A stretch of 64,000 bases of DNA from Desulfatiglandales bacterium (GTDB lineage Bacteria; Desulfobacterota; DSM-4660; Desulfatiglandales; Desulfatiglandaceae). Positions 12,389-54,500 of the stretch are shown here, piece after piece. Under the pieces are notes generated by a model. It had not been told where the DNA came from. It saw only the letters and a program-made list of their open reading frames with translations, and ran no database searches. Within the stretch, counting starts at the first letter, position 1, and each line of letters begins with the position of its first letter. The stretch lies in assembly GCA_963666345.1 (NCBI GenBank), contig OY762721.1, positions 2,912,001 through 2,976,000 on the forward strand, written 5' to 3'. The position numbers and the translations under genes are program-made.

Positions 12389-12460
12389 GCTATCAGCAAT
12401 CAGCTCTCAGCAAAAGATCCGTAATATCAACTTATTGGCCGTTTACTGATTGCTGACAGC
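12389..12460. repeat. Short inverted heptamer-array hairpin
   Basis: GCTATCA-GCAATCA-GCTCTCA then CTGATTGCTGACAGC, a 14/15 inverted match. Confidence 0.6.
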
Positions 12461-37914: not shown

Positions 37915-37923
37915 GGGTTATCA

Positions 37924-40047: not shown

Positions 40048-40610
40048 GGGACCATGGATTTATCAAACCACAAAAAAGATCCAGGTTGCTCGGATCCGGT
40101 TTCTTGGCTGTCATGAAGCGATCTATTCCCCCCAGGACCATGCGGGATGTCTCCCGCTCACATCGGAAACATGGAGGTCCGGTCAAAACAAACCGGGTCG
40201 TTTCAGGTTTCGGCATAACGGGGCGAATCTCCGGAGCAAGGCAATCGGGGCCCCAGGGGCATGAGAATCCTGTTACCACCCCTTTGCCGACGGGGCGCTT
40301 TCAGAAGCCCAGGAACTGGAAATTCCAGACGAAACCGTTCTTCAAAAAAATCAAAGGTCCCCTGGTGGATGTTTTTCACGAGGCGGAGGAAGTGCTTATT
40401 GTCGTTGATCTTTATGGTTTTTCACGGCGGGATGTTTCCTTGAGCATGAGCGAGAACAGATATTTGATTTCCGCATGCACGGAGGATCAAAGTTTTCTGG
40501 AGGAAATACCGCTGCCGCCGGAGTTCGATTTAGAAAAGTGCGTTGAAAATTTCAGGAACGGCATCCTTGAGATCGTCATTCCACGAAAGAAAGTGAAGGA
40601 TTTAACATAG
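40044..40610 (+). CDS. Second Hsp20-domain protein with basic N-terminal extension
   Basis: PLVDVFHE...FRNGILEIVIP. Confidence 0.7.
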   Translation: MRDHGFIKPQKRSRLLGSGFLAVMKRSIPPRTMRDVSRSHRKHGGPVKTNRVVSGFGITGRISGARQSGPQGHENPVTTPLPTGRFQKPRNWKFQTKPFFKKIKGPLVDVFHEAEEVLIVVDLYGFSRRDVSLSMSENRYLISACTEDQSFLEEIPLPPEFDLEKCVENFRNGILEIVIPRKKVKDLT

Positions 40611-40678
40611 AGAGGGTCGTCCTTCATGGGAAGCAAAGGACTCAAAACGCCGGAATCCGGGGAAAAGGACTCTACAGG

Positions 40679-41101
40679 ATGAAAAAAAATCGTACTCAAC
40701 GAAAACAGATAGTCCTCGTTATTGAGGACGAAAAGGAAGTCCTGACTATCTTAGCCCGATTACTCAACAACGAGGGTTATAATGTCTTAGAGGCGGAAAA
40801 CGGTGCCCATGCAGTGCAAATTGCCGGTAGAATTAAACCGGACGTGGCTTTACTGGATCTGAATCTGCCCGACTGTAACGGTATCCGGCTGTTGGGAGAA
40901 CTTAAGGCGATGGACAAGACCCTTCAGGTGATTATCCTGACCGCTCACGGCACGCAGGAGGCGGTTCGGAGCGCGATGGAACTCGGGGCCTTTAATTTCC
41001 TGACCAAACCCTTTGAATTTAACGAATTGTGCGAGGCGGTGCGGGAGGCCTTTGAAACAAAATACGGTTTGGTCAAGCAGGATGAACAACATGTCCAATG
41101 A
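40679..41101 (+). CDS. Single-domain response regulator
   Basis: IEDE, LLDLNLP, LTAHG, TKPF. Confidence 0.9.
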   Translation: MKKNRTQRKQIVLVIEDEKEVLTILARLLNNEGYNVLEAENGAHAVQIAGRIKPDVALLDLNLPDCNGIRLLGELKAMDKTLQVIILTAHGTQEAVRSAMELGAFNFLTKPFEFNELCEAVREAFETKYGLVKQDEQHVQ

Positions 41102-41903
41102 TTCCAGCGCCATTTACCTTTTCTGTTTTGCACGACGCCACAGACTGCCGGTTTTTGAGGTCGGCGGTCTGGATCATCGACATCCTGTTTCATTCTGGGC
41201 ATTCAAAGATATCGTTGCGGTGCTGGGCATGTCATCCCTCGAGGATTTTTGCGGCCCGGAAGCTGAAAACAGGATGAAGGACCTGGCATGGATCGGACCT
41301 CGTGTCTGCCGCCACGAAGAGGTCGTGGAGGAAGTCATGCGCCGTTCTCCGGCATTTCCAGCCCGGTTCGGAACCATTTTTTCCTCGCTTGACGCCCTTG
41401 AGAAACTCCTTGACGTCCACTACGATAAAATATCCCGGTTCCTGGATAAGGCAGCGGACAAGGAAGAATGGGCCGTAAAGGGGCTGTTGAACAGGGTGCA
41501 GACCAGGACAAGTTTTTCGACACTTATGCTTTCAAGGGAAGAAGGGCGACTGGCCTCACTTTCGCCGGGAAAGCGATATCTTGCCGAGCAGCGAATCAGA
41601 AGCAGTGCCGACAGGGAACTGAACATCTGGTTGAATGGGATCATTAAGGGTATCGGGGACGACTTGTGTCGGCATTCCTCTGAATTTCGTGAACGCAAGG
41701 TGCTTTCCCCTGACAGCGAAGCAATGGAGATGGTCCTGAACTGGGCATTTTGGACAGCGCGGGAAGATGCCGATGATTTTCGGGCCAGGGTCGACAGGGC
41801 AAATGAACAGAATGACCGGCAGGGACTGCTGTTACAACTATCGGGGCCATGGCCCCCTTACAGCTTTCTACCCAACCTTGATTTGGTGACCGGTGAACAG
41901 TGA
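41091..41903 (+). CDS. gvpL: GvpL/GvpF-family gas vesicle protein
   Basis: IYLFCF, HEEVVEEVM..PARFGTIF, EEWAVK, SGPWPPYSF. Confidence 0.85.
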   Translation: MSNDSSAIYLFCFARRHRLPVFEVGGLDHRHPVSFWAFKDIVAVLGMSSLEDFCGPEAENRMKDLAWIGPRVCRHEEVVEEVMRRSPAFPARFGTIFSSLDALEKLLDVHYDKISRFLDKAADKEEWAVKGLLNRVQTRTSFSTLMLSREEGRLASLSPGKRYLAEQRIRSSADRELNIWLNGIIKGIGDDLCRHSSEFRERKVLSPDSEAMEMVLNWAFWTAREDADDFRARVDRANEQNDRQGLLLQLSGPWPPYSFLPNLDLVTGEQ

Positions 41904-41926
41904 TCGGTAATCAGTGAACAGTGGGG
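41885..41926. repeat. Heptamer array, left arm of four-helix-bundle element 1
   Basis: GGTGACC GGTGAAC AGTGATC GGTAATC AGTGAAC AGTGGGG. Confidence 0.8.
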
Positions 41927-41932
41927 ACGAAA

Positions 41933-42328
41933 ATGAGTGAATTGGGACATGCAGAAAGTTTTCGAGACTTGATTGTATATCAAAAAGCCAGGAAAGTTGC
42001 CAGTAGGATCTTTGAGATTACCAGGGGCTTTCCGAAGGAAGAGATGTATTCATTAACTGATCAGATAAGACGATCATCAAGGTCGATTGGTGCCCAAATA
42101 GCAGAGGCGTGGGTAAAGCGACGCTATGAAAAACATTTTGTAAGCAAACTTACCGATGCTGACGGTGAGCAATTGGAGACACAACATTGGATCGACACAG
42201 CAATGGATTGCGGATATCTTGATGATGCCCAAGCGGTCGACTTGAACGATGAACTCTCTAAGATTGGCCGAATGCTAAACTCAATGATCAAAAAGTCTGA
42301 ACAATTCTGCGGAAAAGATCACAGGTAA
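41933..42328 (+). CDS. Four helix bundle protein (23S rRNA IVS / bAvd-like family)
   Basis: SFRDLIVYQKA, FPKEEMYSLTDQIRRSSRSIGAQIAEAW, ETQHWID. Confidence 0.92.
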   Translation: MSELGHAESFRDLIVYQKARKVASRIFEITRGFPKEEMYSLTDQIRRSSRSIGAQIAEAWVKRRYEKHFVSKLTDADGEQLETQHWIDTAMDCGYLDDAQAVDLNDELSKIGRMLNSMIKKSEQFCGKDHR

Positions 42329-42358
42329 CCGATCACCGATTACCGATTACCGATCACT
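42317..42358. repeat. Heptamer array, right (inverted) arm of element 1
   Basis: GATCACA GGTAACC GATCACC GATTACC GATTACC GATCACT, complementary to the left-arm units. Confidence 0.8.
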
Positions 42359-42380
42359 GTACAGTGGGGATTTACAAAGC

Positions 42381-43184
42381 GTGTATTTACTGTATTGCAT
42401 ATTTCACGGCATTGAAGTCCAAAGGCAAGCGACCCTTAAGGGGGTTGGCGGTCAACCTGTCTTTCCGGTTGCGATAAACGGCATCGGCGCTGCCGTATCC
42501 GAAATTAGCGATGCGCATTTGACGCCTGATGTTCCGCAGGTCATGGCATACAAAAAGGTTGTAGAATCATTTCACAGCGATCGAACGGTCATTCCCATGC
42601 GATACGGCTGTGTGCTCAGGGACAGGCCTCAGGTTGTTCAGCTTTTGAAGAGAAACGCCCGTCGGTATGAATCGCTTCTCAAAGAACTGGATGGCTGCGT
42701 GGAGATGGGGATTCGATTGATGATTGATGATTGCCGATTGTCGATTGAAGATTTAAGGAAATCGGAGTTAGAAAATTTCGATCCGCAATCCGCAATCCAG
42801 AATCCAAAATCCAAAATCACGGGACGGGCATATCTGGCCGCCCGAAAAGAGCATTATGCCCAAGAAGAATGCATCACGGAAGCGAACAATGAAATCGCCG
42901 AGCAATTCCGTGCCGCGTTGGCCGGTCTCTTCGTGAAATGTAAAGTTGAGACTGCTGCAATCGCCAATCGCCAATCCGCAATCCACAATCCACTTCTTTC
43001 CCTTTATTTTCTCGTGCCTAAAAAATCCATTGATCCGTTCCGGCGGGTTTTTCGGCACATGCGCCGCAGGATGGAAACCACGAAGCTTCTTTTGAGCGGG
43101 CCATGGCCTCCTTACAGTTTTGTGCTGCCTGACAAGAAAGAGCGCCGGTCGGGGCTTCAGGACAAAGAGGTAAAAGAAAGGTAA
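42381..43184 (+). CDS. gvpF: GvpL/GvpF-family gas vesicle protein with in-frame heptamer insertions
   Basis: YLLYCI, TVIPMRYG, VEMGIR, GRAYL, SGPWPPYSF. Confidence 0.82.
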   Translation: MYLLYCIFHGIEVQRQATLKGVGGQPVFPVAINGIGAAVSEISDAHLTPDVPQVMAYKKVVESFHSDRTVIPMRYGCVLRDRPQVVQLLKRNARRYESLLKELDGCVEMGIRLMIDDCRLSIEDLRKSELENFDPQSAIQNPKSKITGRAYLAARKEHYAQEECITEANNEIAEQFRAALAGLFVKCKVETAAIANRQSAIHNPLLSLYFLVPKKSIDPFRRVFRHMRRRMETTKLLLSGPWPPYSFVLPDKKERRSGLQDKEVKER

Positions 43185-43193
43185 CCCTGGACC

Positions 43194-44666
43194 ATGAATG
43201 CCGAATCCGTGAACGCCTCCGATATATCCTCAAAACATGAAGGTCTCTATGAAATGCTTTTAGAGTCCATTCCCTCTTCTGTCCTGCTGATCGACAAAAC
43301 GCTGTCCATCGTATCCGCAAATCGAAATTTCCTTGAAAAAAACGACCTGTCCTTATCCGAGACAATCGGGCAAAAGCTGGAAAAAGTGTTCCCGGACGTA
43401 ATCCTCCACCGGTTGCCTGTCCTGGATCAAATCCGGGGTGTTTTTCAAACCAGCGAACCGACCAATGGCCAGCGGTTGACCTATCGGGCCCCCGGGGTCC
43501 CCATGAGGGTTTATTACTATAAAATGATCCCGGTCATTCGGCAGGGCGTGATTGAAAACGTGATGTTTCTGATGGATGATATCACCCAGCAGGTGAAATT
43601 GAGCGAGAAGATCCAGCAGGTTGAACGTCACCTCGCGAGTGTCGTTGAGAGTGCCACTGACATCGTTCTATCCCTTGATACGGGGGGGCGGTTTTTGTCC
43701 ATGAACCCGGCCGCGGAAAAAATTTTCGGGTTCTCCATCGAGGATAACGATGGCCCGCTGTTTCAGGACTGTTTGCTTAAAGATGAAAAAAAAGAAATGC
43801 AGAAGGTTTTTTCTGAAGTGATGCACGGTAATAAAGCAAAAGCAGTCGAATGGGACCTGATTACAAAAGAGAAAGTGAGCATTCGCGTCTCCTGGATTTT
43901 TTCACCCATGAAGGATGAAATGTCGAAACCGATCGGCATCGTGGCGGTGGGAAGAGACTTAACCGAGCAGCGCAAATTGGAGATGGAGCTTTTTCAGTCA
44001 CAGAAACTCTCCGCCCTGGGCGTTATGGCTGGAGGTGTTGCCCATGAAATCAGAAATCCGCTGGCCATCAGTTCTTCCGCCGCCCAATTTCTCATGGATG
44101 ATGATATTACCGCTGAGTTTCGCAAGGAGTGTGCGGCTAAAGTTAATTTGGGCATTCAGAGAGCTGCCGCCATCATTGATAACCTTATAAAATTTGCCCG
44201 GCCGGCGTCAAAGCACAGGGTTGAGCCTGTTGAACTCATCTCTCTTCTGCAGGAAACAGTATCTCTGGTCTCCAATCAGGCCGGGATACAAAAAATCGAA
44301 ATAATATCGCATCTCTCCGGGGAATCCTTTACGGTCCAGGGGGTTTACGGACTTCTCCAGCAATTGTTCCTAAACCTTTTCCTGAACGCCATTGCGGCCA
44401 TGCCGCACGGAGGTATCCTGACCCTCTCTGCAGAAAGTCGGGTCGGGGACGTTTTGCTTCGGATAACGGATACGGGGGGCGGTATACCGGGAAAAAACAT
44501 CGATAAAATATTCGACCCTTTTTTTACGACCGGTTCCATAGGAGAAGGCATAGGATTGGGGCTTTCCATCGCCTATGCCATCGTGAAACAGCACGTCGGC
44601 ACTATTGAGGTGCATAGTGCCAGAGGAAAGGGAAGCACCTTCATCGTGAAGCTGCCCACACAGTGA
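43194..44666 (+). CDS. PAS-PAS histidine kinase (GvrB-like)
   Basis: Two PAS domains, AHEIRNPL, DTGGGI, GIGLGL. Confidence 0.9.
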   Translation: MNAESVNASDISSKHEGLYEMLLESIPSSVLLIDKTLSIVSANRNFLEKNDLSLSETIGQKLEKVFPDVILHRLPVLDQIRGVFQTSEPTNGQRLTYRAPGVPMRVYYYKMIPVIRQGVIENVMFLMDDITQQVKLSEKIQQVERHLASVVESATDIVLSLDTGGRFLSMNPAAEKIFGFSIEDNDGPLFQDCLLKDEKKEMQKVFSEVMHGNKAKAVEWDLITKEKVSIRVSWIFSPMKDEMSKPIGIVAVGRDLTEQRKLEMELFQSQKLSALGVMAGGVAHEIRNPLAISSSAAQFLMDDDITAEFRKECAAKVNLGIQRAAAIIDNLIKFARPASKHRVEPVELISLLQETVSLVSNQAGIQKIEIISHLSGESFTVQGVYGLLQQLFLNLFLNAIAAMPHGGILTLSAESRVGDVLLRITDTGGGIPGKNIDKIFDPFFTTGSIGEGIGLGLSIAYAIVKQHVGTIEVHSARGKGSTFIVKLPTQ

Positions 44667-44711
44667 GGCGTTCCATTGACGATTGATGATTGGTGATTGA
44701 GGGCTGAAAAC

Positions 44712-45092
44712 ATGAAAACCAAAGAGCGGACCGTTCTCATTGTAGATGACGAGCCGGATATATTCTGGGTTATGGAACACCTCCTGAAGCAGGAAGGATT
44801 TGTCCTGATCGGGGCCTTGAACGGGCTGGAAACCCTGGTGGTCATGGAAAAAAAACATTTTGAACTGATTTTGCTTGACGCCAAACTGCCTGATATTGAG
44901 GGTTTGGCGCTGGCAAAAAAAATAAGGGAGATGGATTCAACGATTCCCATTGTGCTGATATCCGGATATCTTAGCCGGGATGACGAAATCGTTCAGGACG
45001 CACTCTCCAGCGGATTGATCTCGGAGTATATCTCCAAACCTTTTCAGCACACCGAGATCCTGAATGCAGTGAAAAATCTGTTGCTTTTGTAA
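44712..45092 (+). CDS. Single-domain response regulator (GvrC-like)
   Basis: IVDDE, LLDAKLP, ISGY, SKPF. Confidence 0.88.
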   Translation: MKTKERTVLIVDDEPDIFWVMEHLLKQEGFVLIGALNGLETLVVMEKKHFELILLDAKLPDIEGLALAKKIREMDSTIPIVLISGYLSRDDEIVQDALSSGLISEYISKPFQHTEILNAVKNLLLL

Positions 45093-45109
45093 ACCCCGGT
45101 CTCTGAAAT

Positions 45110-45147
45110 ATGGAATGGATTCCATTTTATAATGGCGCCTGTTCCAT
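45110..45147. promoter_or_regulatory. Tandem ATGGA-N6-TCCAT sites (candidate UAS for gvpA)
   Basis: Perfect copy at 45110-45125 and a 1-mismatch copy at 45132-45147, 22 bp apart. Confidence 0.6.
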
Positions 45148-45266
45148 AGCCCCTATTTCCTGTTTTTTATCCTTTGAGAATCAATTCCCCCGTCCTCCGT
45201 TCAAATTACCCTTGATTTCAGCCGGTTGAAAGGGATTAAAGCTTCCACCACAAATGTACGTGTCTC

Positions 45267-45282
45267 CGGCACGGTTAATGCA
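45267..45282 (+). promoter_or_regulatory. Sigma54 promoter of gvpA
   Basis: CGGCACGGTTAATGCA = GG-N10-GC, about 70 bp upstream of gvpA. Confidence 0.7.
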
Positions 45283-45354
45283 ATAAATATTGTCTGCATG
45301 CATGCATATGGCAAAATCAGTTTAACCGACAAAAAACCAGAAAGGAGAAACATC

Positions 45355-45573
45355 ATGGCAAAAGTACAAAAATCGACAGATTCCTCGAGCCTGGCAGAGG
45401 TTGTGGACAGAATCCTCGACAAAGGCATTGTAATCGATGCATGGGCCAAGGTATCGCTTGTTGGGATAGAATTGCTGTCTATCGAAGCGCGTGTGGTGAT
45501 CGCTTCAGTGGAAACCTATTTGAAGTATGCCGAAGCCATCGGCCTCACAGCCTCCGCTGCAGCTCCTGCCTGA
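45355..45573 (+). CDS. gvpA: Major gas vesicle shell protein GvpA
   Basis: [63 protein letters not shown]. Confidence 0.98.
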
Positions 45574-45735
45574 AAGATCGGTGTGAAGGCAGCTTAGGCG
45601 GAATGAAACGACCCGCAACCGTTGCCCTTCCCCGTTAAACCCATATGGGCAATCTTTACGCGAGGAGCCGATCCCAAGGCTCCTCACGTTCAGACAACAT
45701 CTGTTTCCATTATAAACCGAGAAAGGAGAAGGACC

Positions 45736-46830
45736 ATGGGGCGATTAACGGAAGATATGACAAATCTGCGTGATGGAATAGACGCCCTCCGCAACGGGCG
45801 GGTGGAATTCATCGCCGGTTTAAAACACGGCATGTCTGAACTCAAGTCCGATGTGGCGGACATGCAGCAAGGTTTCCGCAAAGATTACACCCGGATGGCC
45901 GGAAACATGAAAGACAATTTGAAGGCCTTCATGGCTGAAACAGAAGCATATGTCTCAAACCTGAAAAATGACGTGGTGGACATGCAGGATAATTTCCGCA
46001 GCGATCACGCCGATATGGCCCGTAAGTTGAAAGACGATCTTAGTGGGTTTGCATCCGGGATAACATCCTCCGTGGCCGACCTGATGGATCTCTTCAGTGA
46101 CGACCGTGCCAAGATGGCCGGAAACATGAAAGACAGTTTGAAGGCCTTCATGGCTGAAACAGAAGCATATGTCTCAAACTTGAAAAATGACGTGGCGGAC
46201 ATGCAGGATAATTTCCGCAACGACCACGCCGATATGGCCGGCAAGTTGAAAAAGAATCTTCGGATGTTCGCAGCCGGCATAAAGTCCACCGTGTCCGATC
46301 TGGAAAAGCAATTTCGAGATGAGCATATCGAGATGACCGGCAAGGCCGGGGCTGAACGCCAAATGTTTTTTTCAAACGTGAAACAATCGCTTGCCGACCT
46401 GAAACTGAAAACAACCGATCTTCTTCAGGATATTAGCGATGATCTTGCCGGGGCCCGCAGGGCATGGTCCGGCACAACACCAACACCGTCCAGGAAAAGG
46501 ACTGCCGAAAAGGTCCCCAGGCCTGCCAAAAAACAGGCAGAACCGGAGAAGGTTGCACTTCCGGTCAAAGATCAGGAAGCGCAAGAGAGTACCGAAGATG
46601 TGCCTTTAAAGGTACGCCAACCCGCCAAAGCACAGGCAAAATCGGATGATCTCACACAGATCAATGGAATTGGTCCCGTCATGAGCAGGTGTCTGAACAA
46701 GGCCGGTATTTTTACGTTCGCAAAATTGGCTTCAAGCACCACTGAGGAAATCCGGGGAGCGCTGGGGCAATCGGCAAAGTTTGCCAACTTTGAGAGGTGG
46801 GTCAAGGAGGCCGGGAAATTGAGCAGCTAA
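45736..46830 (+). CDS. gvpC: GvpC-like helical repeat protein with C-terminal helix-hairpin-helix domain
   Basis: Lies between gvpA and gvpN; 33/40-aa amphipathic repeats (DNA duplication 45895/46114, offset 219); DDLTQINGIGP. Confidence 0.7.
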   Translation: MGRLTEDMTNLRDGIDALRNGRVEFIAGLKHGMSELKSDVADMQQGFRKDYTRMAGNMKDNLKAFMAETEAYVSNLKNDVVDMQDNFRSDHADMARKLKDDLSGFASGITSSVADLMDLFSDDRAKMAGNMKDSLKAFMAETEAYVSNLKNDVADMQDNFRNDHADMAGKLKKNLRMFAAGIKSTVSDLEKQFRDEHIEMTGKAGAERQMFFSNVKQSLADLKLKTTDLLQDISDDLAGARRAWSGTTPTPSRKRTAEKVPRPAKKQAEPEKVALPVKDQEAQESTEDVPLKVRQPAKAQAKSDDLTQINGIGPVMSRCLNKAGIFTFAKLASSTTEEIRGALGQSAKFANFERWVKEAGKLSS

Positions 46831-46912
46831 ACAGCGTGTTCGCCTCAGGTCCCGGTCTTTTTTTGTCAAATTCACGATTTTCAAGAAAATTTTCAATGTC
46901 GGGAGAGTTTCA

Positions 46913-47878
46913 ATGAAGACTAAATCTTTGAATCGCACCTCGGAAGCAATCCAGATAATGCCGATGCCAAATGATAACGTTCTGCCCGAGCCCAGCAAGG
47001 AATTCGTCAACACCTCTTACATCCGGGATGTGACGGAGCGTGCCCTTGCTTATCTCAATGTGGGATATCCGGTACACTTTTCCGGCCCGGCAGGCACGGG
47101 AAAAACAACCCTTGCCTTTCATATTGCCGCACAGCTCGGCAGGCCGGTCTCTCTCATTCACGGAGATGACGAGTTCGGAAGCTCCGACCTGATTGGACGG
47201 GATTCGGGATACCGAAAGTATAAACTTTATGACAATTATATCCATTCCGTCATGAAAACCGAGGAGCATTTGAATACACAGTGGGAGGACAACCGGTTGA
47301 CCACGGCATGCAAAAACGGGAATACGCTCATTTACGATGAGTTTACCCGGTCTAGACCGGAGGCCAATAATGCGCTTCTCAGCGTCCTAGAAGAAAAATT
47401 TTTAAATCTGCCAAGGCTTCGAAGGGCCGATAAGGGGTACATGGAAGTGCATCCCGATTTCCGGGCGATCTTTACTTCCAACCCCGAGGAGTATGCAGGG
47501 GTCCACAAAACCCAGGACGCACTGATGGACCGTCTAATCACCATTCATCTGGGCCATTTTGACAGGGAGACGGAGGTGCAGGTTGCAATGGCCAGGTCGG
47601 GTCTGAAACTCAGCGATGCCGAAACCATTGTCGACATCGTGAGAGGGTTGCGAAATACGGGAGTAAATAACAACCGGCCCACCATTCGTGCCAGCATCGC
47701 CATTGTCCGCATCCTGGCAAACCTTGGCGGGCACGCCCGGATGGACGACCCCGTTTTCATCCGCACATGCCGTGACGTCCTGAGCACCAATACGGCCAAG
47801 GTTACCCGCGGGGGCCAGCCACTCATGCCCGAGGTGCTGGAGGAGGTTATGCAGAAGGTCTGCGGAACCCGGACATAA
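46913..47878 (+). CDS. gvpN: Gas vesicle AAA+ ATPase GvpN
   Basis: GYPVHFSGPAGTGKTTLA, YDEFTRSRPEANN, NPEEYAGVHKTQDALMDR. Confidence 0.96.
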   Translation: MKTKSLNRTSEAIQIMPMPNDNVLPEPSKEFVNTSYIRDVTERALAYLNVGYPVHFSGPAGTGKTTLAFHIAAQLGRPVSLIHGDDEFGSSDLIGRDSGYRKYKLYDNYIHSVMKTEEHLNTQWEDNRLTTACKNGNTLIYDEFTRSRPEANNALLSVLEEKFLNLPRLRRADKGYMEVHPDFRAIFTSNPEEYAGVHKTQDALMDRLITIHLGHFDRETEVQVAMARSGLKLSDAETIVDIVRGLRNTGVNNNRPTIRASIAIVRILANLGGHARMDDPVFIRTCRDVLSTNTAKVTRGGQPLMPEVLEEVMQKVCGTRT

Positions 47879-47903
47879 CCGGCCGGAGACCGTTGGCCGC
47901 TCA

Positions 47904-48025
47904 TATTGGCGATTGCAGATTTGTGATTGATGATTTGCGATTGTCGATTGAAGGAATTCTATATTTTATCAAAAAAGAAAGAGCGAAGCGATTCCACAAA
48001 TCAACAATCAACAATCGACAATAAA
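47904..48025. repeat. Empty inverted heptamer element between gvpN and the gvpV-like gene
   Basis: 7 GATTGnn-type units, a core containing GAGCGAAGCGATTCC, then 4 CAATCnn-type units. Confidence 0.8.
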
Positions 48026-48038
48026 AAGGAGCCAAAAG

Positions 48039-48362
48039 ATGCCTTTACCCAAAAAAATCATTCGAGGTTTGGCAAACATCCGCACACGCTCGGGAACCCG
48101 CGACCAGGTATCCGAGCCGTACAAGGCTTTTCTTAGAATCGGATCACTGGAGATGGAGAAAGCCCGGCGGGGCAAGGAAAAGGAAAGCGCAATGAACCGT
48201 GTGCATAATATAGATGACCGTTTCCTGGAAATCGAGGCTGAAAAATCTGAACTTCTAAAGGCAATCGGCATAACGGCCAGCGGCGATGCTTGCGGTAATC
48301 CGGCCAATGGGTCGAAGCGTGAGACGGCCCAAAATAATGGCGGATTCAAAATATCTTACTGA
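48039..48362 (+). CDS. GvpV-like gas vesicle protein
   Basis: Coiled-coil protein (RGLANIRT, LEMEKARR) directly after gvpN. Confidence 0.6.
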   Translation: MPLPKKIIRGLANIRTRSGTRDQVSEPYKAFLRIGSLEMEKARRGKEKESAMNRVHNIDDRFLEIEAEKSELLKAIGITASGDACGNPANGSKRETAQNNGGFKISY

Positions 48363-48770
48363 GTATCAGTATGGATTATAGGATTGATGATTGACTATTG
48401 GTGATTGTCGATTGAAAAGCGCCTTAAAAGCTAAAGCATACAATATCCAAACACCAAAAACATTATTTTAAGGGTTATATATGAGGTAAACCGATGCCAA
48501 GGTTGAAGGGGGCGGCCTATATCCACACCAGCCGAACGATCCGAGGTTTTCGGTCCTGTCGGCACTTTACCGGGATATCTCTCACCTACTTTGAGTCCGG
48601 CCGGATCGGATTCGAAAAAGAGAAAATAGCCGTCAGGGAAGCGTTGAACAGAAGACACGGTCAAAGTCACCGTGCAGGTTCTCGTCTGCTGTCCGAGGGT
48701 GTTCCGGTTCATGACAGGAAGACGCTTATTGGAGATAGAAACAAGAAAGGGCAAAGAAAGGGGTCAAGAT

Positions 48771-48956
48771 ATGAAAATCAACTGTCTTTCCTGCGGGCAC
48801 AAAGTAGACCTGGACGATGTTTACGATGATTATCAAGGCCAGATCAGGTGTTTGACCTGCGCCGCGATGCTGGAAATCAAAACCGAGGAAGGTCAACTCA
48901 GATCTGTCATATGGGCTAATGTTCCGCCCTCCCCTTTGGAAGAGAAAACCGCCTGA
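48771..48956 (+). CDS. Small zinc-ribbon protein
   Basis: CLSC...CLTC, 61 aa, purine-rich RBS. Confidence 0.65.
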   Translation: MKINCLSCGHKVDLDDVYDDYQGQIRCLTCAAMLEIKTEEGQLRSVIWANVPPSPLEEKTA

Positions 48957-49007
48957 GGGCGCTTTGACAATTACCCGCAAACGTAAGAAAAGGATTGGGA
49001 AAGCAAA

Positions 49008-49772
49008 ATGGCTGCGCAATCTCCGGATCATAAAGGAAGATACTTATACGCCGTAATCGCCGGGGCCGGCGGGCAAAACCTGGAAACACAGGGAATTGAC
49101 AACGGCGCCCTCTATACCATTTCTGAAGGGAAAATCTCGGCTGTTGTCAGCGATGTCCCCAACAAAAAGCTGCGACCGGAACGGAGACACCTGGCGGCCC
49201 ACCAGGGTGTGCTTCGGCGGTTGATGGAAGAGGGCACGCCGCTCCCCATGACATTCGGTATCATTGCGGACGGTTCCCGGGCAATCAGGCGGATACTGAC
49301 CCTAAACGAAAAAGCTTTTCAGGAAGCGCTTGACCATGTCAACGGGAAAGTGGAAATGGGACTGCGGGTCACCTGGGATGTACCGAATATATTCGATTAT
49401 TTTATCAACACCCATCCGGAACTCAGAGCGGTACGAGATCGGTATTTCGGCACCAATCTGGAACCGGCGCACGCGGATAAGTTAGCGCTGGGGCGTATGT
49501 TCGACAACCTGTTGAATGAAGAAAGGGAGATCCACACCGAAAAGGTAGAAGAGATTCTTGCCGGTGTCTGCTTCGAGATCAACCGAAACCCATGCCGAAG
49601 CGAACTGGAAGTCATGAGCCTGGCCTGCCTTGTGGGACGGGATAAGGCGAAACAAAAAGCGTTTGAAAAAGGCATTTTGGAAGCAGCCAATCCGTTCGAC
49701 AACAATTATGCCTTCGATTACAACGGCCCCTGGGCTCCCCATAATTTCGTGGATATAGAGCTTAAGTTATGA
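49008..49772 (+). CDS. gvpF: Gas vesicle protein GvpF
   Basis: GRYLYAVI, AHQGVL, LPMTFG, GKVEMGLRV, GPWAPHNFV. Confidence 0.9.
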   Translation: MAAQSPDHKGRYLYAVIAGAGGQNLETQGIDNGALYTISEGKISAVVSDVPNKKLRPERRHLAAHQGVLRRLMEEGTPLPMTFGIIADGSRAIRRILTLNEKAFQEALDHVNGKVEMGLRVTWDVPNIFDYFINTHPELRAVRDRYFGTNLEPAHADKLALGRMFDNLLNEEREIHTEKVEEILAGVCFEINRNPCRSELEVMSLACLVGRDKAKQKAFEKGILEAANPFDNNYAFDYNGPWAPHNFVDIELKL

Positions 49773-49792
49773 ATGAAGAGAAAACAATTTTT

Positions 49793-49933
49793 GATTGGCG
49801 ATTGGCGATTGGCGATTGACGATTTAAGGAAGTCGCTTCGCTCCATTATTATTTTTATAAATATAGAGCGATATTCCTCAATTTTTCAAACGGTGTTATT
49901 CAATCAACAATCGCCAATCAACAATCAACAATG
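49793..49933. repeat. Empty inverted heptamer element between gvpF and gvpG
   Basis: (GATTGGC)3 GATTGAC GATTTAA, a core GGAAGTCGCTTCGCTC, then CAATCAA CAATCGC CAATCAA CAATCAA CA-ATG. Confidence 0.85.
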
Positions 49934-50212
49934 CTTATAGTCGATGACATACTGTTTTTTCCGATGCGTAGTATCCTCTGGATATTTCGCGAACTGCACA
50001 ACTCCGTCCGGCAGGAGATGGAAAACGAGGCCGAGTCCATCACGGCGGAACTGAGCGATCTTTATATGATGTTAGAGACGGAAAGAATAACGGAAGACGA
50101 GTTCGACGCCCGTGAAAAACAGCTCCTTGACCGGCTGGAAATGATACAGGAGCGCAATACCGGTATCGAAGATGATGAAGAAGACCCTGATCCGGATAAA
50201 CCGGGAGAGTGA
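49931..50212 (+). CDS. gvpG: Gas vesicle protein GvpG
   Basis: DDILFFP...LWIF, ITEDEFDAREKQLLDRL. Confidence 0.9.
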   Translation: MLIVDDILFFPMRSILWIFRELHNSVRQEMENEAESITAELSDLYMMLETERITEDEFDAREKQLLDRLEMIQERNTGIEDDEEDPDPDKPGE

Positions 50213-50334
50213 CAACTGATCAGTAACCGGCCTCCGGCCCAGAGGGACCTACGCCCCGGAGGATGATCAGTGAAAAAAGATCGGTGACCGATAACCTATG
50301 ACTGATATCCGGTACCAGATTAAAGGGCTAAATA

Positions 50335-52422
50335 GTGACGGGAGAGCAACCGGAAGGATGTCAAAGTTTGAACACAGAACCACACAAGGACTCACCTCTT
50401 TTCCTTCGCAACAGCCATTTGCGAATCCTTTTTTTCGGCGGCAAAGGCGGTGTCGGCAAGACAACGTGCGCTACGGCCACGGTGCTCAGACTGGCCAAGC
50501 GCACCGCGGAAGCCTCCTTTCTCTTAGTCTCGACAGATCCGGCCCATTCTCTGGCCGATAGCCTGGCCGACACCACCCTTCCTTGCAATTTAAACGTTAT
50601 CGAACTCGACGCAGGAAAATCCCTAACCGCTTTCAAGAAAAACCACACCCGGAAACTCAGGGAGATTGCATCCCGCGGAACTTTCTTTGACGGAGAAGAT
50701 ATCAATGAGATCCTGGACCTCTCCCTGCCGGGCATGGACGAGCTGATGGCCTTTCTCGAGATCGCGGGGTGGGTGGAAAATGAGACGTATGACTGCATTG
50801 TGGTGGATACCGCTCCAACGGGACACACTCTCAGACTGCTGGCCATGCCGGCGTTGATCAAAAGGTGGCTTGATGCGCTGGATGCGCTGTTAGCCAAGCA
50901 TCGTTATATGAAGAAGCTGTTCAGCGGTTCTTATCGGCCTGATGATCTGGATAAATTCCTGTCCGGGATGGCCGGTTCGGTCAAACAGATGGAGGCGCTG
51001 CTGCAGGATCCGGAACGATGCTGTTTTGTTCCCGTTATGCTTGCCGAAGCCTTGAGCGTCACAGAGACCTCGAGGCTGTTGGAGGGATTGAAACAATCAA
51101 AGATACCGGTCACCGATATCGTGGTGAACAGGCTTTACCCGGAAAGTATTTGTATGGTTTGTTCGGACCGGCACATCCGACAGATGGGAGAGCTCGGTCA
51201 ACTTGAAAAGAAAATATCCGCTTATTCCCTATGGGGAATTCAACAATACCCGGAAGAAATTCGCGGTCCGGCTCCTCTCGAGGTATTCTGGGATGGACTT
51301 GTTGCATTGAACAATCAACCCCGGTTGAATATTCTAAAGATTCAACGGGGCAAGCAATCAGCAATCCATGGCCCAGACCTGGCCGGCCCAGATCCTGCGG
51401 TCAAGGGAAGTACATGGAGAACCAACAGAAGTAAAAGCATGCTCAGAGCATGTCGCGCCAGGGCGGGCATCAATCGCCAATCAACAATCGCCAATCAACA
51501 ATCCAAACCGCCTGTTCCTGAAAAGAGGCTCCTGGTTTTTGCCGGAAAGGGGGGAGTTGGAAAGACCACCCTGGCCTGTGCCACGGCAGTCAGGATGGCC
51601 CGGACATTTCCGGATAAGGGGGTTTTTCTATTCTCTACGGATCCGGCCCATTCCCTGTCGGACTGTCTAAGGAAACGGATCGGACCGGAGCCGACAGAGC
51701 TTATTCCCGGACTGACAGCCATGGAGATCGACGCACAGGCAGAGTTCGATGGCTTGAAAAAAAAGTATGCGGCAGAACTGGAGAGGTTTCTTGTCGCCCT
51801 CTCGCCCGATCTTGATCTGACATTTGATCGCGAAGTGATGGAACGCGTCATGGATCTCTCTCCCCCCGGCCTGGATGAAGTGATGGCCCTCACCCTAGCC
51901 ATGGGTTTTCTCGCCGAGGATCAATACCAGGTCTTCGTGCTCGATTCGGCCCCGACTGGGCACCTGATCCGGCTTTTGGAAACCCCGGAGCTCATTCAGC
52001 AGTGGCTCAAGATGTTTTTCAACCTTTTTCTGAAGTATAAGCGCGTTTTTCGGCTTCCCGGGGTCTCGGAGCAAATGATCCGGATATCAAAAGATCTCAA
52101 ACGCCTGCTTGCCCTGTTAAAGGATTTCGACCGGTCGGCGCTATATGCGGTGACCATACTGACGGAGATGGCATTTCAGGAGACAGCGGACCTGGTGGCT
52201 GCCTGCCTGCGAATGGGGATAAATGTGCCGACGCTTTTTCTCAATCTTGCCACACCGGTCAGTGAGTGCCCTCTTTGCTCGGCCCTTTACCGGAACGAGG
52301 AGCAGATCAGAAAAAAGTTTGAGCGAACCTTTCCCGGAAAGTCCCAGGTCCTGGTCCATTACATGGGGGAAACGCGGGGCATGCAGCGAATCGAGGCGCT
52401 GGGAGATGAGATTTATGATTGA
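50335..52422 (+). CDS. ArsA/Get3-family ATPase with two nucleotide-binding domains
   Basis: Two sets of GKGGVGKTT, STDPAHSL, D(T/S)APTGH and CxxC. Confidence 0.9.
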   Translation: MTGEQPEGCQSLNTEPHKDSPLFLRNSHLRILFFGGKGGVGKTTCATATVLRLAKRTAEASFLLVSTDPAHSLADSLADTTLPCNLNVIELDAGKSLTAFKKNHTRKLREIASRGTFFDGEDINEILDLSLPGMDELMAFLEIAGWVENETYDCIVVDTAPTGHTLRLLAMPALIKRWLDALDALLAKHRYMKKLFSGSYRPDDLDKFLSGMAGSVKQMEALLQDPERCCFVPVMLAEALSVTETSRLLEGLKQSKIPVTDIVVNRLYPESICMVCSDRHIRQMGELGQLEKKISAYSLWGIQQYPEEIRGPAPLEVFWDGLVALNNQPRLNILKIQRGKQSAIHGPDLAGPDPAVKGSTWRTNRSKSMLRACRARAGINRQSTIANQQSKPPVPEKRLLVFAGKGGVGKTTLACATAVRMARTFPDKGVFLFSTDPAHSLSDCLRKRIGPEPTELIPGLTAMEIDAQAEFDGLKKKYAAELERFLVALSPDLDLTFDREVMERVMDLSPPGLDEVMALTLAMGFLAEDQYQVFVLDSAPTGHLIRLLETPELIQQWLKMFFNLFLKYKRVFRLPGVSEQMIRISKDLKRLLALLKDFDRSALYAVTILTEMAFQETADLVAACLRMGINVPTLFLNLATPVSECPLCSALYRNEEQIRKKFERTFPGKSQVLVHYMGETRGMQRIEALGDEIYD

Positions 52423-52441
52423 TGATTGGAGGAAATAAATT

Positions 52442-52705
52442 ATGGCTGATTTTTCCATCGAGGAAACGGAACATATCTCTCTTTGCGAGACCCTGGATCG
52501 CATTCTCAACAAAGGCGCCGTTATTTTCGGTGAAGTGGTGATTTCCGTTGCCAATGTGGATTTGATCTACATTGCCTTGCAGGTGCTGGTTGGTTCAGTC
52601 GAAACGGTGCGGGGGGAAATGCCGATAAGTGGTTCTAATCCTCCTCCCATAAGACTTGGGATCAGGGCAGACAATGTCGGCAAATTAGAGATTGGCGATT
52701 GTTGA
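52442..52705 (+). CDS. GvpA-family minor protein (GvpJ/GvpS-like)
   Basis: SLCETLDRILNKGAVIFGEVVISVANVDL. Confidence 0.85.
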   Translation: MADFSIEETEHISLCETLDRILNKGAVIFGEVVISVANVDLIYIALQVLVGSVETVRGEMPISGSNPPPIRLGIRADNVGKLEIGDC

Positions 52706-52788
52706 TTGGCGATTTACGATTGAATCCGGTTTTGAGTTTTTCAATCAACAATCCAGAAGTCATCAATCCAAAGGAGGACGTTGGTAAA

Positions 52789-53184
52789 ATGATCAATCAT
52801 CAATCATCAATCATCAATCATCAATCAAAAAAGGTTGAATCCGAAACCCTCAGCGATTTTGCCAGAGTCATGGGTAAGGACACCGTGCAGGCTCAATCGC
52901 ATTGCGAAGTGAACGACCGTCGCGCCCGGATCGAACTTGATCCGGAAAAGGCAAAAAACGGGCTCGGTCAACTGGTGCTCACCCTAATGAAAGTCATTCA
53001 CGAACTCCTGGAACTTCAGGCGATCCGTCGAATCGACGCGGGGTCACTCATGGATGAAGAGGTTGAAAACATCGGGATGACTTTGATGAAGCAGGCCGAG
53101 GAGATTGACAGGCTCAGAAAAGAGTTCAACCTGGAGGAGGATGATCTCAATATTGACTTGGGGCCACTGGGGAAACTCTTATAA
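52789..53184 (+). CDS. gvpK: Gas vesicle protein GvpK
   Basis: GLGQLVLTLMKVIHELLELQAIRR, DLNIDLGPLGKLL; AAGGAGG RBS before the ATG at 52789. Confidence 0.92.
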   Translation: MINHQSSIINHQSKKVESETLSDFARVMGKDTVQAQSHCEVNDRRARIELDPEKAKNGLGQLVLTLMKVIHELLELQAIRRIDAGSLMDEEVENIGMTLMKQAEEIDRLRKEFNLEEDDLNIDLGPLGKLL

Positions 53185-53217
53185 TTGTTGATTGACGATT
53201 GTTGATTGATGATTGAA
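53183..53217. repeat. Heptamer array, left arm of four-helix-bundle element 2
   Basis: AATTGTT GATTGAC GATTGTT GATTGAT GATTGAA. Confidence 0.8.
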
Positions 53218-53245
53218 AGAAACAAATCTTATTTAAGAGGAGGAT

Positions 53246-53626
53246 ATGGAGTTAGATCCTGAAGAATTGAAAAAAAGGACAAAAGATTTCGCTCATAGGT
53301 GTGTAAAGCTTGCTATTTCATTGCCACGAACCACACTGGGAAAGCACATTGAATCTCAGTTAATCAGGTGTTCGACATCTGTAGCATCAAATTATCGAGC
53401 CAGTATTCATGCCCAGTCAAAAGCTGCATTTATAGCGAAAATAAGTATTGTAATTGAAGAATCAGACGAATCTGAGCTTTGGTTGGAATTCGTGATGGAT
53501 GAAAAGCTAATGGAAAGAAAGAAGGTTTTGCCGCTTTTCAATGAAGCACATGAACTATCTTCCATTTTTATAACCACAAGAAGGACAGCTCAGAAAAAGA
53601 AAAAAATCAACAATCATAAATCATAA
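53246..53626 (+). CDS. Four helix bundle protein (23S rRNA IVS / bAvd-like family)
   Basis: LKKRTKDFA, QLIRCSTSVASNYR, SKAAFIAKISIVIEESDESELWLE. Confidence 0.92.
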   Translation: MELDPEELKKRTKDFAHRCVKLAISLPRTTLGKHIESQLIRCSTSVASNYRASIHAQSKAAFIAKISIVIEESDESELWLEFVMDEKLMERKKVLPLFNEAHELSSIFITTRRTAQKKKKINNHKS

Positions 53627-53638
53627 ATCAACAATCAA
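53604..53638. repeat. Heptamer array, right (inverted) arm of element 2
   Basis: AAATCAA CAATCAT AAATCAT AAATCAA CAATCAA. Confidence 0.8.
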
Positions 53639-53654
53639 AACCGGAGGTTTTCAT

Positions 53655-53984
53655 ATGGCCATTCAACGTGCAGCACAGCATTCCATCGCGAGCACCAACC
53701 TTGCCGATTTGCTCGAACGTATTTTGGACAAGGGGATCGTGATAGCGGGGGATATCAAGATCAGCCTGGTCGACGTCGAACTGCTGACCATCCAGCTTCG
53801 CCTGGTCATATGTTCCGTGGATAAGGCCAGGGAGATGGGCATGGACTGGTGGGTAAATAACCCCTGCTTCACCCGGGGGGCAAAAAATGATCAAGTCGTT
53901 GATTCCCTTGAAAGGATCGAGAAAAGACTCGAAAGACTGGAATCTTCCCCTTTGAAAGAATCCGGAAGTGATTCAGCACCTTAA
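53655..53984 (+). CDS. gvpJ: Gas vesicle protein GvpJ
   Basis: [52 protein letters not shown]. Confidence 0.9.
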   Translation: MAIQRAAQHSIASTNLADLLERILDKGIVIAGDIKISLVDVELLTIQLRLVICSVDKAREMGMDWWVNNPCFTRGAKNDQVVDSLERIEKRLERLESSPLKESGSDSAP

Positions 53985-54072
53985 GCCCGCGGTTTCCATT
54001 TGCGAAATTAAGCGTTGGATACATGGTTTTCGCCCGCAAGGGCAAAGCGACTGAAGACGAGGAGGTCGAATT

Positions 54073-54321
54073 ATGGGTCGGATTACTGACGTTTTGAATT
54101 ATCGACTGAAGAATAAAGGGTTTGAGCCAGTTGCGATCCCCAGGTTTATAAAGGATGTGGTCCATGCCGTTTCCGTTAATCACCAAATCGGACTGACGGA
54201 GATGAATAGACGATTGTGCCTGTTAGGCTGGGACCCCATCGAATTGGATCACCACACGCTGCAATTGATCATCGCGAGCAATGAAAAGGATTCGGTCCTC
54301 CCGGAGAGAATGTTGACTTAA
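54073..54321 (+). CDS. Hypothetical protein
   Basis: GGAGG RBS, 82-aa ORF. Confidence 0.6.
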   Translation: MGRITDVLNYRLKNKGFEPVAIPRFIKDVVHAVSVNHQIGLTEMNRRLCLLGWDPIELDHHTLQLIIASNEKDSVLPERMLT

Positions 54322-54362
54322 TATTGGTCCGGTATTCATTGTGATGAAGAAAAAGAGGTATT

Positions 54363-54500
54363 ATGGCGGCAGTCATCAAACACTATTTGAATCCTTTGCA
54401 TATCTATTGCCGGTTGAGGAACATAGGAATCCGAAAAACCATGGCAATATCACCCTGCCGTTGTTATGAGCGGGTCCTTTTCAAGCGTTTTTTAAAATAG
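54363..54500 (+). CDS. Small hypothetical protein (45 aa; below the ORF-track cutoff)
   Basis: AGAGG RBS; MAAVIKHYLNPLHIYCRLRNIG... Confidence 0.5.
   Translation: MAAVIKHYLNPLHIYCRLRNIGIRKTMAISPCRCYERVLFKRFLK

Follow-up and report, generated by a model that had tools for sequence, protein, structure and literature searches.

Probable passenger hairpin cassettes with four-helix-bundle genes in the gas-vesicle operon of a Desulfatiglandales bacterium

Why should two small four-helix-bundle genes lie between mirrored tandem arrays of seven-nucleotide words in the middle of a gas-vesicle (gvp) operon? The question is raised by a stretch of 64,000 nucleotides from a Desulfatiglandales bacterium (G000:C1:2912001-2976000, called the window below), whose genome is one contig of 4.16 Mb with 48% G+C. 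A profile search of ORFs (open reading frames) placed the gvp cluster at window positions 41000-54200. It encodes three GvpL/F and three GvpA/J-type proteins, GvpG, GvpK and a GvpN-like AAA protein, and also a two-domain ArsA-like ATPase, a histidine kinase and response regulators. A preliminary description of this DNA had taken the two genes, with their arrays and further arrays nearby, for a mobile or RNA-processing cassette. On balance we favour the reading that passenger hairpin cassettes have colonised the gvp operon, that their arms pair in the transcript in the manner of an intervening sequence (IVS), and that a sister family with octamer arms is moved by an ISL3 element.

Both genes, named IVP1 and IVP2 here, encode members of the PF05635/TIGR02436 family and both lie between mirrored heptamer arrays, as had been described; the arrays were detected with Tandem Repeats Finder (TRF) and with two independent scans of our own. 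IVP1 scores 113.8 bits against PF05635 (cut-off 33.8) and 108.3 bits against TIGR02436 (cut-off 24), and IVP2 scores 49.2 and 67.5 bits against the same two models. Homologues of solved structure were found by sequence for IVP1 (PDB 2RLD, E 2.8e-10; 2GSC, E 1.5e-6) and for IVP2 (2RLD, E 2.9e-12); both PDB entries hold five chains, and a Xanthomonas member of the family is termed a homopentamer in the accessible text of its account (PMC4990558). The intact cassette proteins are under purifying selection: the proportion of non-synonymous differences (pN) is far below that of synonymous differences (pS) in all eight pairs, and dN/dS is 0.08-0.24 where dS is unsaturated. They are not generally basic, the median isoelectric point being 6.7 with values above 8 in 16 of 42 proteins.

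The arrays consist of words with five conserved and two free positions. Left arms read GATTGnn and right arms nnCAATC, and in cassette 1 GGTGAAC/AGTGATC faces GATCACC/GATTACC. The left arm of cassette 1 begins 3 nt past the stop codon of the upstream GvpL/F gene and pairs with 42326-42359 in the minimum free energy (MFE) fold. As the preliminary description had proposed, the arms are reverse-complementary and close the MFE fold of both ORF-bearing cassettes (41880-42372 and 53178-53648; z -3.2 and -1.2). Cassette 1 was also found in DNA contigs of three sediment metagenomes, with an exact match to the window where one is listed.

Such arrays are strongly concentrated in the gvp cluster. A genome-wide scan for period 7 (threshold 16/21 matches) returned 67 arrays, 13 of which fall inside window positions 41000-54500, an interval that makes up 0.32% of the genome and for which about 0.2 arrays would be expected. 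The same scan gave no array of period 5, 6, 8, 9 or 10 within this interval. Of all GATTG runs with at least three units at period 7 in the genome, eight of nine lie in the window. Period-7 arrays were recovered at the sites first listed for them, except that 50215-50316 proved to be a degenerate hairpin not called by TRF. The arrays other than those of the two cassettes had been called gene-less, but several are not intergenic: those at 42714-42820, 42958-42992 and 51312-51505 lie inside genes and that at 52690-52827 overlaps gene ends.

The association between the gene family and inverted word arrays is not peculiar to the window. The genome holds 36 matches to PF05635, 24 of them over the cut-off, with internal stops in 17 of those 24. 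Arrays of period 7 or 8 lie within 250 bp of a PF05635 match in 32 of 130 cases, where 0.84 would be expected (~38-fold), so that the enrichment proposed as a check in the preliminary description was found here and followed into 57 other genomes. Complementarity between the two flanks of a match was measured by local-alignment score, because duplex folding energies failed to separate cassettes from random sites (control mean -72 kcal/mol). By this score, 17 of the 36 matches (16 of the 24 over the cut-off) exceeded the 99th percentile of 1000 random sites and 11 of the 36 exceeded the control maximum.

A PF05635 match is present in 32 of 40 relatives, with 0 to 24 per genome compared to the 36 of this genome. 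The set of cassettes used to compare words was assembled from three sources: the best locus of each of 28 relatives (29 yielded one, and L060 was left out), seven further copies in L071, L072 and L014, and seven copies in this genome; one G013 copy is in it twice (L045, L072). In 20 of the 44 cassettes the consensus word of the left flank, reverse-complemented, differed from that of the right flank at no more than one position; permuting the partners gave a mean of 1.3 and a maximum of 6 such cassettes (2000 permutations). The comparison was extended to 28 genomes of the phylum that belong to other families and lie outside the order. There the words matched with at most one mismatch in 13 and with at most two in 19, and period 7 prevailed on the left flanks (19 of 28, Ns being present in one of the 28) as on the right flanks (22 of 28). 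Overall, 112 of 136 flanks had an array of period 7-9 by TRF, and in 46 of 68 cassettes both flanks did. The cassettes in the 57 other genomes of the phylum are thus mostly of the same build. One intact copy in this genome (G000:C1:1645777-1646064) has 9-base words of the CTAAAGTGA type on its flanks and resembles a 9-mer-armed copy in G010 (L064), the proteins being 64% identical; arm periods of 7, 8 and 9 are therefore all present in one genome.

Gas-vesicle operons look like preferred habitats of the cassettes. A gvp contig of 25 kb (G007:C43, L071) holds 5 of the 16 PF05635 matches of its genome, and another of 34 kb (G013:C28, L072) holds 4 of 12. The gvp clusters of these other genera and that on G017:C8, whose GvpF is only ~25% identical to that of the window, are dense in PF05635 genes and in heptamer arrays of several words. 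A second heptamer island of our genome (G000:C1:1621000-1640000, L070) is a CheB/CheR/hybrid histidine-kinase operon. Three PF05635 genes lie there, along with one GATTGAC x5 array and numerous CGCGGAA/TTCCGCG arrays, a part of them within kinase ORFs; all CGCGGAA/TTCCGCG arrays are confined to 1.623-1.635 Mb. In the five operons considered, all 16 cassettes have the orientation of their operon.

To follow single junctions we compared the window with three syntenic gvp clusters of 80-90% nucleotide identity to it, G009 (two contigs, which stop short of the gvpK/gvpA junction), L014 and L015, and also with the more distant cluster L028. The alignments show cassettes gained, replaced and eroded at the same junctions: the related clusters have empty sites, remnants, an empty hairpin or a different cassette at them. 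At the gvpF1/gvpF2 junction, where the window has the full cassette 1 (41887-42375), G009 lacks the cassette and has a spacer of 20 nt that retains one remnant resembling a word of the same type, L015 has two GATTG-type words and no cassette, and L014 has a different PF05635 gene between GACGAGGG-type arms. The preliminary description had looked to orthologous empty sites as a test, and these exist for cassette 1 in G009 and L015. At least three different words occur at this junction among four relatives. At the gvpK/gvpA junction the window has the full cassette 2, only short pieces of the two arms are left in L015, and in L014 there is an empty GATTG hairpin whose loop equals that of the hairpin at the neighbouring junction. 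At the Hsp20/CDC48-like junction, two right-arm words in the window correspond to five right-arm units in G009, to about two left-arm words in L015 and to a full IVP2-like cassette in L014 (71% nucleotide identity), which has a second IVP2-like cassette at the junction upstream.

The arrays that hold no ORF vary in the same way. The hairpin at 49786-49930 is missing from G009, and L014 has a hairpin of another word at the same site. The segments 48384-48480 and 50216-50290 are also missing from G009; at the 50215-50316 site L014 has clear GGTGAAC/CCGATAA arrays. A 51-nt loop (47950-48000) is missing in G009, where the arms abut, and the loop of hairpin 52690-52827 is found again in two L014 hairpins. 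Unit numbers differ as well, with 30 bp more in G009 after 52427 and differences of 15 and 12 bp in intragenic arrays. L028 has plain, array-free junctions. The gene-less arrays share word families and look like ORF-less or eroded members, reduced to an empty hairpin, to one arm or to one or two words; ORF-bearing, ORF-less and eroded members thus stand side by side, in agreement with the preliminary description. The alignments together show junctions that were repeatedly colonised and afterwards eroded, not everywhere in the same way.

Most other PF05635 copies of this genome belong to a sister family, in which the arms are made of 8-base words (GGGTTCGA and TCGAACCC types) and the ends outside the arms are inverted repeats. 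We found 35 paired octamer elements of 87-603 bp. Their flanking 8-mers are identical at seven or more of eight positions in 26 of the 35, compared to 0-1 of 35 when the boundary is shifted by 1-3 bases, and these target duplications are 84% A+T in a genome of 52% A+T. The 30-nt left end of the family occurs 38 times in the genome (reversed control, 0), and no transposase is encoded by the family itself. Internal deletion of the full element accounts for the shorter copies; in some of them the deletion has joined the occurrences of a short direct repeat, one at either end of the ORF. Of the 19 octamer-family copies of the gene only 2 are intact, in contrast to all five operon-borne copies (Fisher p 0.0005). 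With its terminal inverted repeats (TIRs), target duplications, many copies and lack of a transposase, the octamer family has the properties of a MITE, a miniature inverted-repeat transposable element. Because TIRs and 8-bp AT-rich target duplications enclose the elements, the family moves as DNA by means of a staggered-cut transposase.

A candidate for this transposase is that of the resident ISL3 element, which may mobilise the octamer family in trans. The element is 1349 bp long and present in three identical copies, all three with 8-bp AT-rich duplications (A+T in 21 of 24 bases); a target duplication of 8 bp is typical of the ISL3 family. Its ends begin GGTTCATC, those of the octamer cassettes begin GGATCATC and GGTTCTTC, and a palindrome follows in both. 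Seven of the eight terminal bases are shared, the duplications are of equal length and the targets are similarly rich in A+T. The preliminary description had pictured a spread without a recognisable transposase, which fails for the octamer family, given TIRs and 8-bp duplications like those of the resident ISL3. Nor is there a basis for its term autonomous-like, since nothing ties the protein to cassette movement. The 30-nt left end was found in none of the 40 relatives with up to 3 mismatches; we do not claim the octamer shell to be unique to this genome, because a copy in G005 has diverged but recognisably similar ends. A search for an autonomous partner between cassette ends used 13-mer ends with 2 mismatches, which was too loose, and the first three candidate pairs contained no evident transposase ORF. 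A module of ~55 nt with ~60 matches in the genome lies to the left of some octamer elements and, reverse-complemented, to the right of others (e.g. G000:C1:2710064-2710118, and the downstream flank at 2066743), which suggests a nested or invertible sub-element.

For the gvp operon we propose that passenger hairpin cassettes colonised gene junctions and three tolerant intragenic linkers. A full cassette would comprise, in this order, a left array of ~4-6 heptamers, a ribosome-binding site, the PF05635/TIGR02436 gene and the reverse-complementary right array. The arms would pair in the operon transcript into a long stem with the gene in its loop, similar to the ORF-bearing 23S rRNA intervening sequences that are cut by RNase III, and this stem-loop could allow the cassette to be carried along by host transcription while doing little damage. 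The resident ISL3 transposase would mobilise the octamer sister family in trans, and the heptamer cassettes may spread otherwise, perhaps by recombination between same-word arms. The cassettes have no visible promoter, run in the direction of the operon and fit exactly between a stop codon and the next start. Because it accounts for these three features, we favour an RNA stem as the most likely role of the arms, at moderate odds. An RNase III (rnc) homologue is encoded in the genome. The strongest fold is that of the ORF-less hairpin 49791-49932 (-46.8 kcal/mol, z -6.2, with none of 200 shuffles as good); the other ORF-less hairpins gave z-scores of -2.8 (52690-52827), -2.4 (50215-50316), -2.2 (47905-48023) and -0.8.

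Some hairpins are carried in frame inside genes. The hairpin 42713-42819 is read in frame in the linker of the GvpL/F gene 42381-43184 and occurs in G009, L014 and the distant L028 as well. The unit of its left arm that stands in the stop-prone frame is GATTGCC (TGC) and not GATTGA (TGA). At the same linker site, homologues of other lineages have an unrelated variable linker and L028 has a similar hairpin-encoded peptide. The solo array 42955-42994 was found in G009, L014 and L015 too. A 109-bp insert in the linker of the ArsA-like gene (51369-51477) is present in the window only. The left arm of hairpin 52690-52827 contains the end of the upstream gvpA/J-type gene, and its right arm the likely start of gvpK (ATG 52790).

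Several observations weigh against the proposal. The z-scores of whole-cassette folds are modest, and neither the solo array 44675-44700 (z -0.5) nor one intragenic hairpin folds better than shuffled sequences. Many stems consist of 5-bp blocks interrupted by the two variable word positions, a non-ideal substrate for RNase III. Selection on an RNA stem should produce a bias of G·U over A·C among arm mismatches on the sense strand; 94 G·U and 75 A·C were counted in 58 cassettes (p 0.17), which is no such bias. In the RNA run X18, a groundwater metatranscriptome and the only such run to cover this region, a joint 41886>42380 resembled an excision, but its letters are those of the empty DNA site of G009 and the run carries a G009-like relative; the joint 48367>48483 likewise equals an empty site of this relative. 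Neither joint is taken as excision, because both sites are empty in the DNA of the relative itself. The loops of the heptamer ORF-less hairpins hold no recognisable gene remnant, only 9-17-nt matches of which the best are arm-boundary words, and descent of ORF-less hairpins from full cassettes is seen for the octamer family only. No TIRs or target duplications were seen around the heptamer cassettes of the window or 12 others inspected. Since 'empty' sites usually retain one or two words, much of the presence/absence pattern is differential loss and not fresh insertion. The ends of ISL3 and of the octamer elements differ beyond the first eight bases.

The mobile cassette put forward at the outset is supported with two corrections: one family has a transposase candidate, and erosion accounts for much of the variation. 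The heptamer arrays of the window abut the neighbouring stop codon and ribosome-binding site. No duplication emerged from the comparisons with empty sites. At 49786/49930 there is just a microhomology of 6 bp, AACAAT, and the direct repeat ACAGTGGGGA of cassette 1 (10 bp) lies inside and not outside its left arm. Short-sided joints at arms in metagenome contigs (sides of 20-32 nt) are most likely same-word hairpins of other organisms and were left unused. An Rfam search gave no family, only one sub-threshold chance match to a miRNA precursor model (23 bits against 90), and PADLOC defence models gave only matches with E near 0.001-0.01.

The arms could instead be handles for DNA recombination or transposition and not RNA stems, with cassettes and same-word empty hairpins trading loops through ectopic gene conversion, or through a double crossover, between like arms, and such an exchange would give local spread without target duplications. 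The clustering of words by locus speaks for it, both in the GATTG runs of the window (8 of 9) and in the CGCGGAA/TTCCGCG arrays of the second island, as do the same-word empty hairpin at the L014 site of IVP2, with its loop equal to that of the neighbouring junction, the heptamer cassettes without flanking target duplications, the missing G·U bias, and the octamer family, whose outer stem is the TIR of a unit that transposes. However, at least three words at gvpF1/gvpF2 would need entry into sites without matching arms, and the co-orientation of 16 of 16 cassettes and their abutment to stop and start are better explained by dependence on expression. We consider DNA handles unlikely. A host origin is a good deal harder to sustain: the arrays would be simple-sequence repeats arisen by polymerase slippage that serve the operon through mRNA stability, translational coupling or differential decay, as proposed for cyanobacterial short tandemly repeated repetitive (STRR) hairpins, and the four-helix-bundle genes would be incidental. 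Unit number does vary between relatives, and gene-less heptamer hairpins have been reported between hupS and hupL (PMC2670836), as have paired inverted GGGAATC arrays in Xanthomonas with no gene described inside them in the accessible text (PMC4692102). On the other hand, the ~38-fold enrichment of arrays near PF05635 genes recurs as an association across the phylum, the junctions of the distant L028 are free of arrays, arrays and genes are lost or swapped together, and the octamer family transposes as a unit; host repeats are thus very unlikely. It is scarcely credible that the genes encode Avd accessory proteins of a diversity-generating retroelement. IVP1 does match PF22296 bAvd (47 bits, cut-off 40), but it scores only 45.3 against the NCBIfam Avd equivalog NF033474 (cut-off 80), IVP2 gave no Avd match in the profile search, and the two RVT_1 matches of the genome lie ~61 kb and ~31 kb from the nearest PF05635 matches.

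A further possibility concerns the relation between words and proteins. A pentameric protein might bind the tandem words of its own arms with about one word per subunit, so that same-word ORF-less arrays would be targets in trans and the operon would be tuned or marked. In its boldest form, the word would be an address: the five-fold ring of the protein would read about five tandem copies of its own 7-base word in single-stranded RNA or DNA, and the array and its targets would form a network of control or propagation within the operon, in which the GATTG word would mark about ten gvp junctions around IVP2. The purifying selection on the proteins agrees with this, as do the five chains of 2RLD and 2GSC, the Xanthomonas homopentamer (PMC4990558), the five conserved and two free positions of the words, and the same-word gene-less arrays around each cassette. 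Arm copy number peaks at 4-5 (median 4.6), and the arm word is shared in 9 of 18 pairs of proteins at least 60% identical, compared with ~2% of pairs below 50%. The TRAP protein, which reads GAG repeats, offers an analogy. Yet the copy numbers are broad (2 to 22, the lower end being set by detection), some proteins 64-73% identical have unrelated words, a Mantel test of protein against word gave a weak correlation (r -0.11, with 37 of 1000 permutations at or below this value), the proteins are not basic as a rule, and common descent of cassette units suffices to explain shared words. We therefore hold binding of its own words by the protein to be improbable, and give the address form the same small chance. 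If it were true, the long-unexplained heptamer repeats of many phyla would be binding sites of an orphan protein family. The data fit a descent of cassettes as units with fairly fast change of words, for which word-specific binding would not be required. Stop triplets are not enriched in the arm words (9/25 and 11/24, against 0.31 for random heptamers).

Passenger hairpin cassettes of the kind we favour have a close parallel in ORF-bearing 23S rRNA intervening sequences. According to the accessible text of PMC4990558, that of Coxiella burnetii has a 28-bp terminal stem, its RNase III cleavage sites are mapped, its loop contains an S23p ORF, and this ORF is preceded by 2-3 tandem heptamers that vary between strains; further examples in Leptospira, Brucella and Xanthomonas are cited there. 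The likeness covers the same protein family in the loop, complementary termini forming a stem, and variable heptamers beside the ORF, and we also count as such the description of the 23S IVS as selfish and prone to ORF decay (PMC4990558). The differences are equally clear. The host here is a protein-coding operon, and the single LSU (large subunit) rRNA gene (606500-609522) holds none of the 36 PF05635 copies, so that a true 23S rRNA intervening sequence was rejected. The stem described for the 23S IVS is a unique one of 28 bp, whereas the arms here are whole word arrays; the Coxiella ORF is reported as decaying, whereas the proteins here are under purifying selection; and RNase III cutting has been mapped in Coxiella, whereas the cassettes here are known from DNA sequence and predicted folds.

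Heptamer repeats have been described as well, namely the cyanobacterial STRR heptamer hairpins of the Nostoc hup/hox regions (PMC2670836), 70-75 inverted pairs of GGGAATC arrays in an account of Xanthomonas and Nostoc that names no gene between them in its accessible text (PMC4692102), and the TAACTGA repeats of Beggiatoaceae (PMC4679880). As far as the accessible parts of these papers go, the repeats resemble ours in being tandem words of 7 nt at gene junctions, in many cases immediately ahead of a start codon, and in a length that varies among relatives, and those of the STRR and GGGAATC kinds are sometimes paired and inverted with hairpin potential. The window arrays fit the STRR-type description in being tandem 7-nt units at junctions, variable in number. 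In the text available, those accounts make no connection between the repeats and a gene family (that of PMC4692102 does not contain the term 'S23'), whereas here the arrays appear to be arms, in part eroded, of PF05635 cassettes. Compared with MITEs mobilised by ISL3, the octamer family agrees in its TIRs, its 8-bp AT-rich duplications (26/35), its internal deletions, its ~38 copies and the lack of its own transposase, and differs in carrying a conserved passenger gene and inner tandem-word arms; the heptamer cassettes of the window differ from MITEs in having neither terminal repeats nor duplications. Our literature search, in which subscription journals were mostly outside coverage, returned no account linking PF05635 genes to inverted heptamer arrays outside rRNA.

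The system connects rRNA intervening sequences with heptamer repeats, both of them already known kinds. It thereby joins two puzzles, an orphan family of solved structure known in print only from 23S rRNA and the unexplained heptamer repeats of cyanobacteria, Xanthomonas and Beggiatoaceae. If those arrays are cassette arms, eroded or not, much unexplained intergenic repeat DNA would be the trace of one kind of passenger element. The purifying selection implies that the protein works, the sister family provides a transposase that can be tested, and four syntenic operons offer defined full, empty and swapped sites. The hairpins within reading frames matter for the annotation of gvp and other operons. 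The coordinates of the features are collected in the table.

Table. Heptamer arrays, hairpins and four-helix-bundle genes in and near the gvp cluster (window positions).
Feature	Position	Strand	Detection and remarks
Two-word right-arm remnant ATCAACAATCATA at the Hsp20/CDC48-like junction	37899-37915	+	Sequence comparison
Cassette 1, left arm	41886-41923	+	TRF, period 7, 4.4 copies; GGTGACC GGTGAAC AGTGATC GGTAATC AGTGAAC ...
IVP1, four-helix-bundle gene, 131 aa	41933-42328	+	PF05635, TIGR02436
Cassette 1, right arm	42317-42359	+	TRF, 5.9 copies; GATCACC GATTACC ..., reverse-complementary to the left arm
ORF-less hairpin, GATTGnn x5, short loop, nnCAATC/AATCC x5	42713-42819	+	TRF 42714-42753 / 42781-42818
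Solo right-type array, CAATCGC ... CAATCCA	42955-42994	+	In frame in GvpL/F gene 42381-43184; TRF 42958-42991
Solo left-type array	44675-44700	+	TRF; between histidine-kinase and response-regulator genes
ORF-less hairpin	47905-48023	+	TRF 47905-47950 / 47999-48022; between GvpN-like AAA gene and next ORF
Solo left-type array	48382-48415	+	TRF
ORF-less hairpin up to the ATG of gvpG	49791-49932	+	TRF 49793-49824 / 49901-49932
Degenerate hairpin, cassette-1 word type	50215-50316	+	Missed by TRF
Right-type words and small hairpin in the inter-domain linker of the ArsA-like gene	51312-51505	+	TRF 51471-51503
Short left-type array giving the TGA stop of the ArsA-like gene	52410-52428	+	TRF
ORF-less hairpin	52690-52827	+	TRF 52690-52722 / 52788-52827
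Cassette 2, left arm, GATTGnn	53184-53216	+	TRF; directly after the gvpK stop
IVP2, four-helix-bundle gene, 126 aa	53246-53626	+	PF05635, TIGR02436; last residues encoded by the right arm
Cassette 2, right arm, nnCAATC	53602-53640	+	TRF; then ribosome-binding site and start of the next gvpA/J-type gene

Other heptamers recur elsewhere in the genome. A 30-nt block of the GCTGAnn type is near-identical at ~14 sites (e.g. G000:C1:246074, 971581, 1239281, 1564297 and 1672533), and the window array 12392-12413 is of this type. GGTTATT/GGTTACT arrays are repeated between 1.65 and 2.08 Mb.

Some further observations were made on the surroundings of the cassettes. Compared with the window at 40041-41111 and 43541-44330, G009 (L011) is without the second Hsp20-like gene, a response regulator and 790 bp of a PAS kinase; these segments are present in L015, L014 and the window, which points to a deletion in G009 or to an assembly artefact of short contigs. 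An IS4-family element (NF033592, 280 bits) at 55269-56429, with ends near 55255 and 56530, interrupts a PAS/kinase gene and is bordered by the 9-bp direct repeat ACTCGAGAT. It was rejected as a partner of the cassettes, its ends being unrelated to theirs. In the RNA run X18, with its G009-like relative, the word depth was ~460-600 over the first gvpA-type gene (window 45013-45926) and 0-43 elsewhere in the gvp cluster, values that come from contigs only and are no measure of expression. Finally, an apolipoprotein-like repeat protein of 402 amino acids is encoded at 45622-46830 and is a possible analogue of GvpC. It has internal repeats of ~190 bp, and in comparison with G009 a 120-bp block of its gene (45902-46021) is present in the window only.

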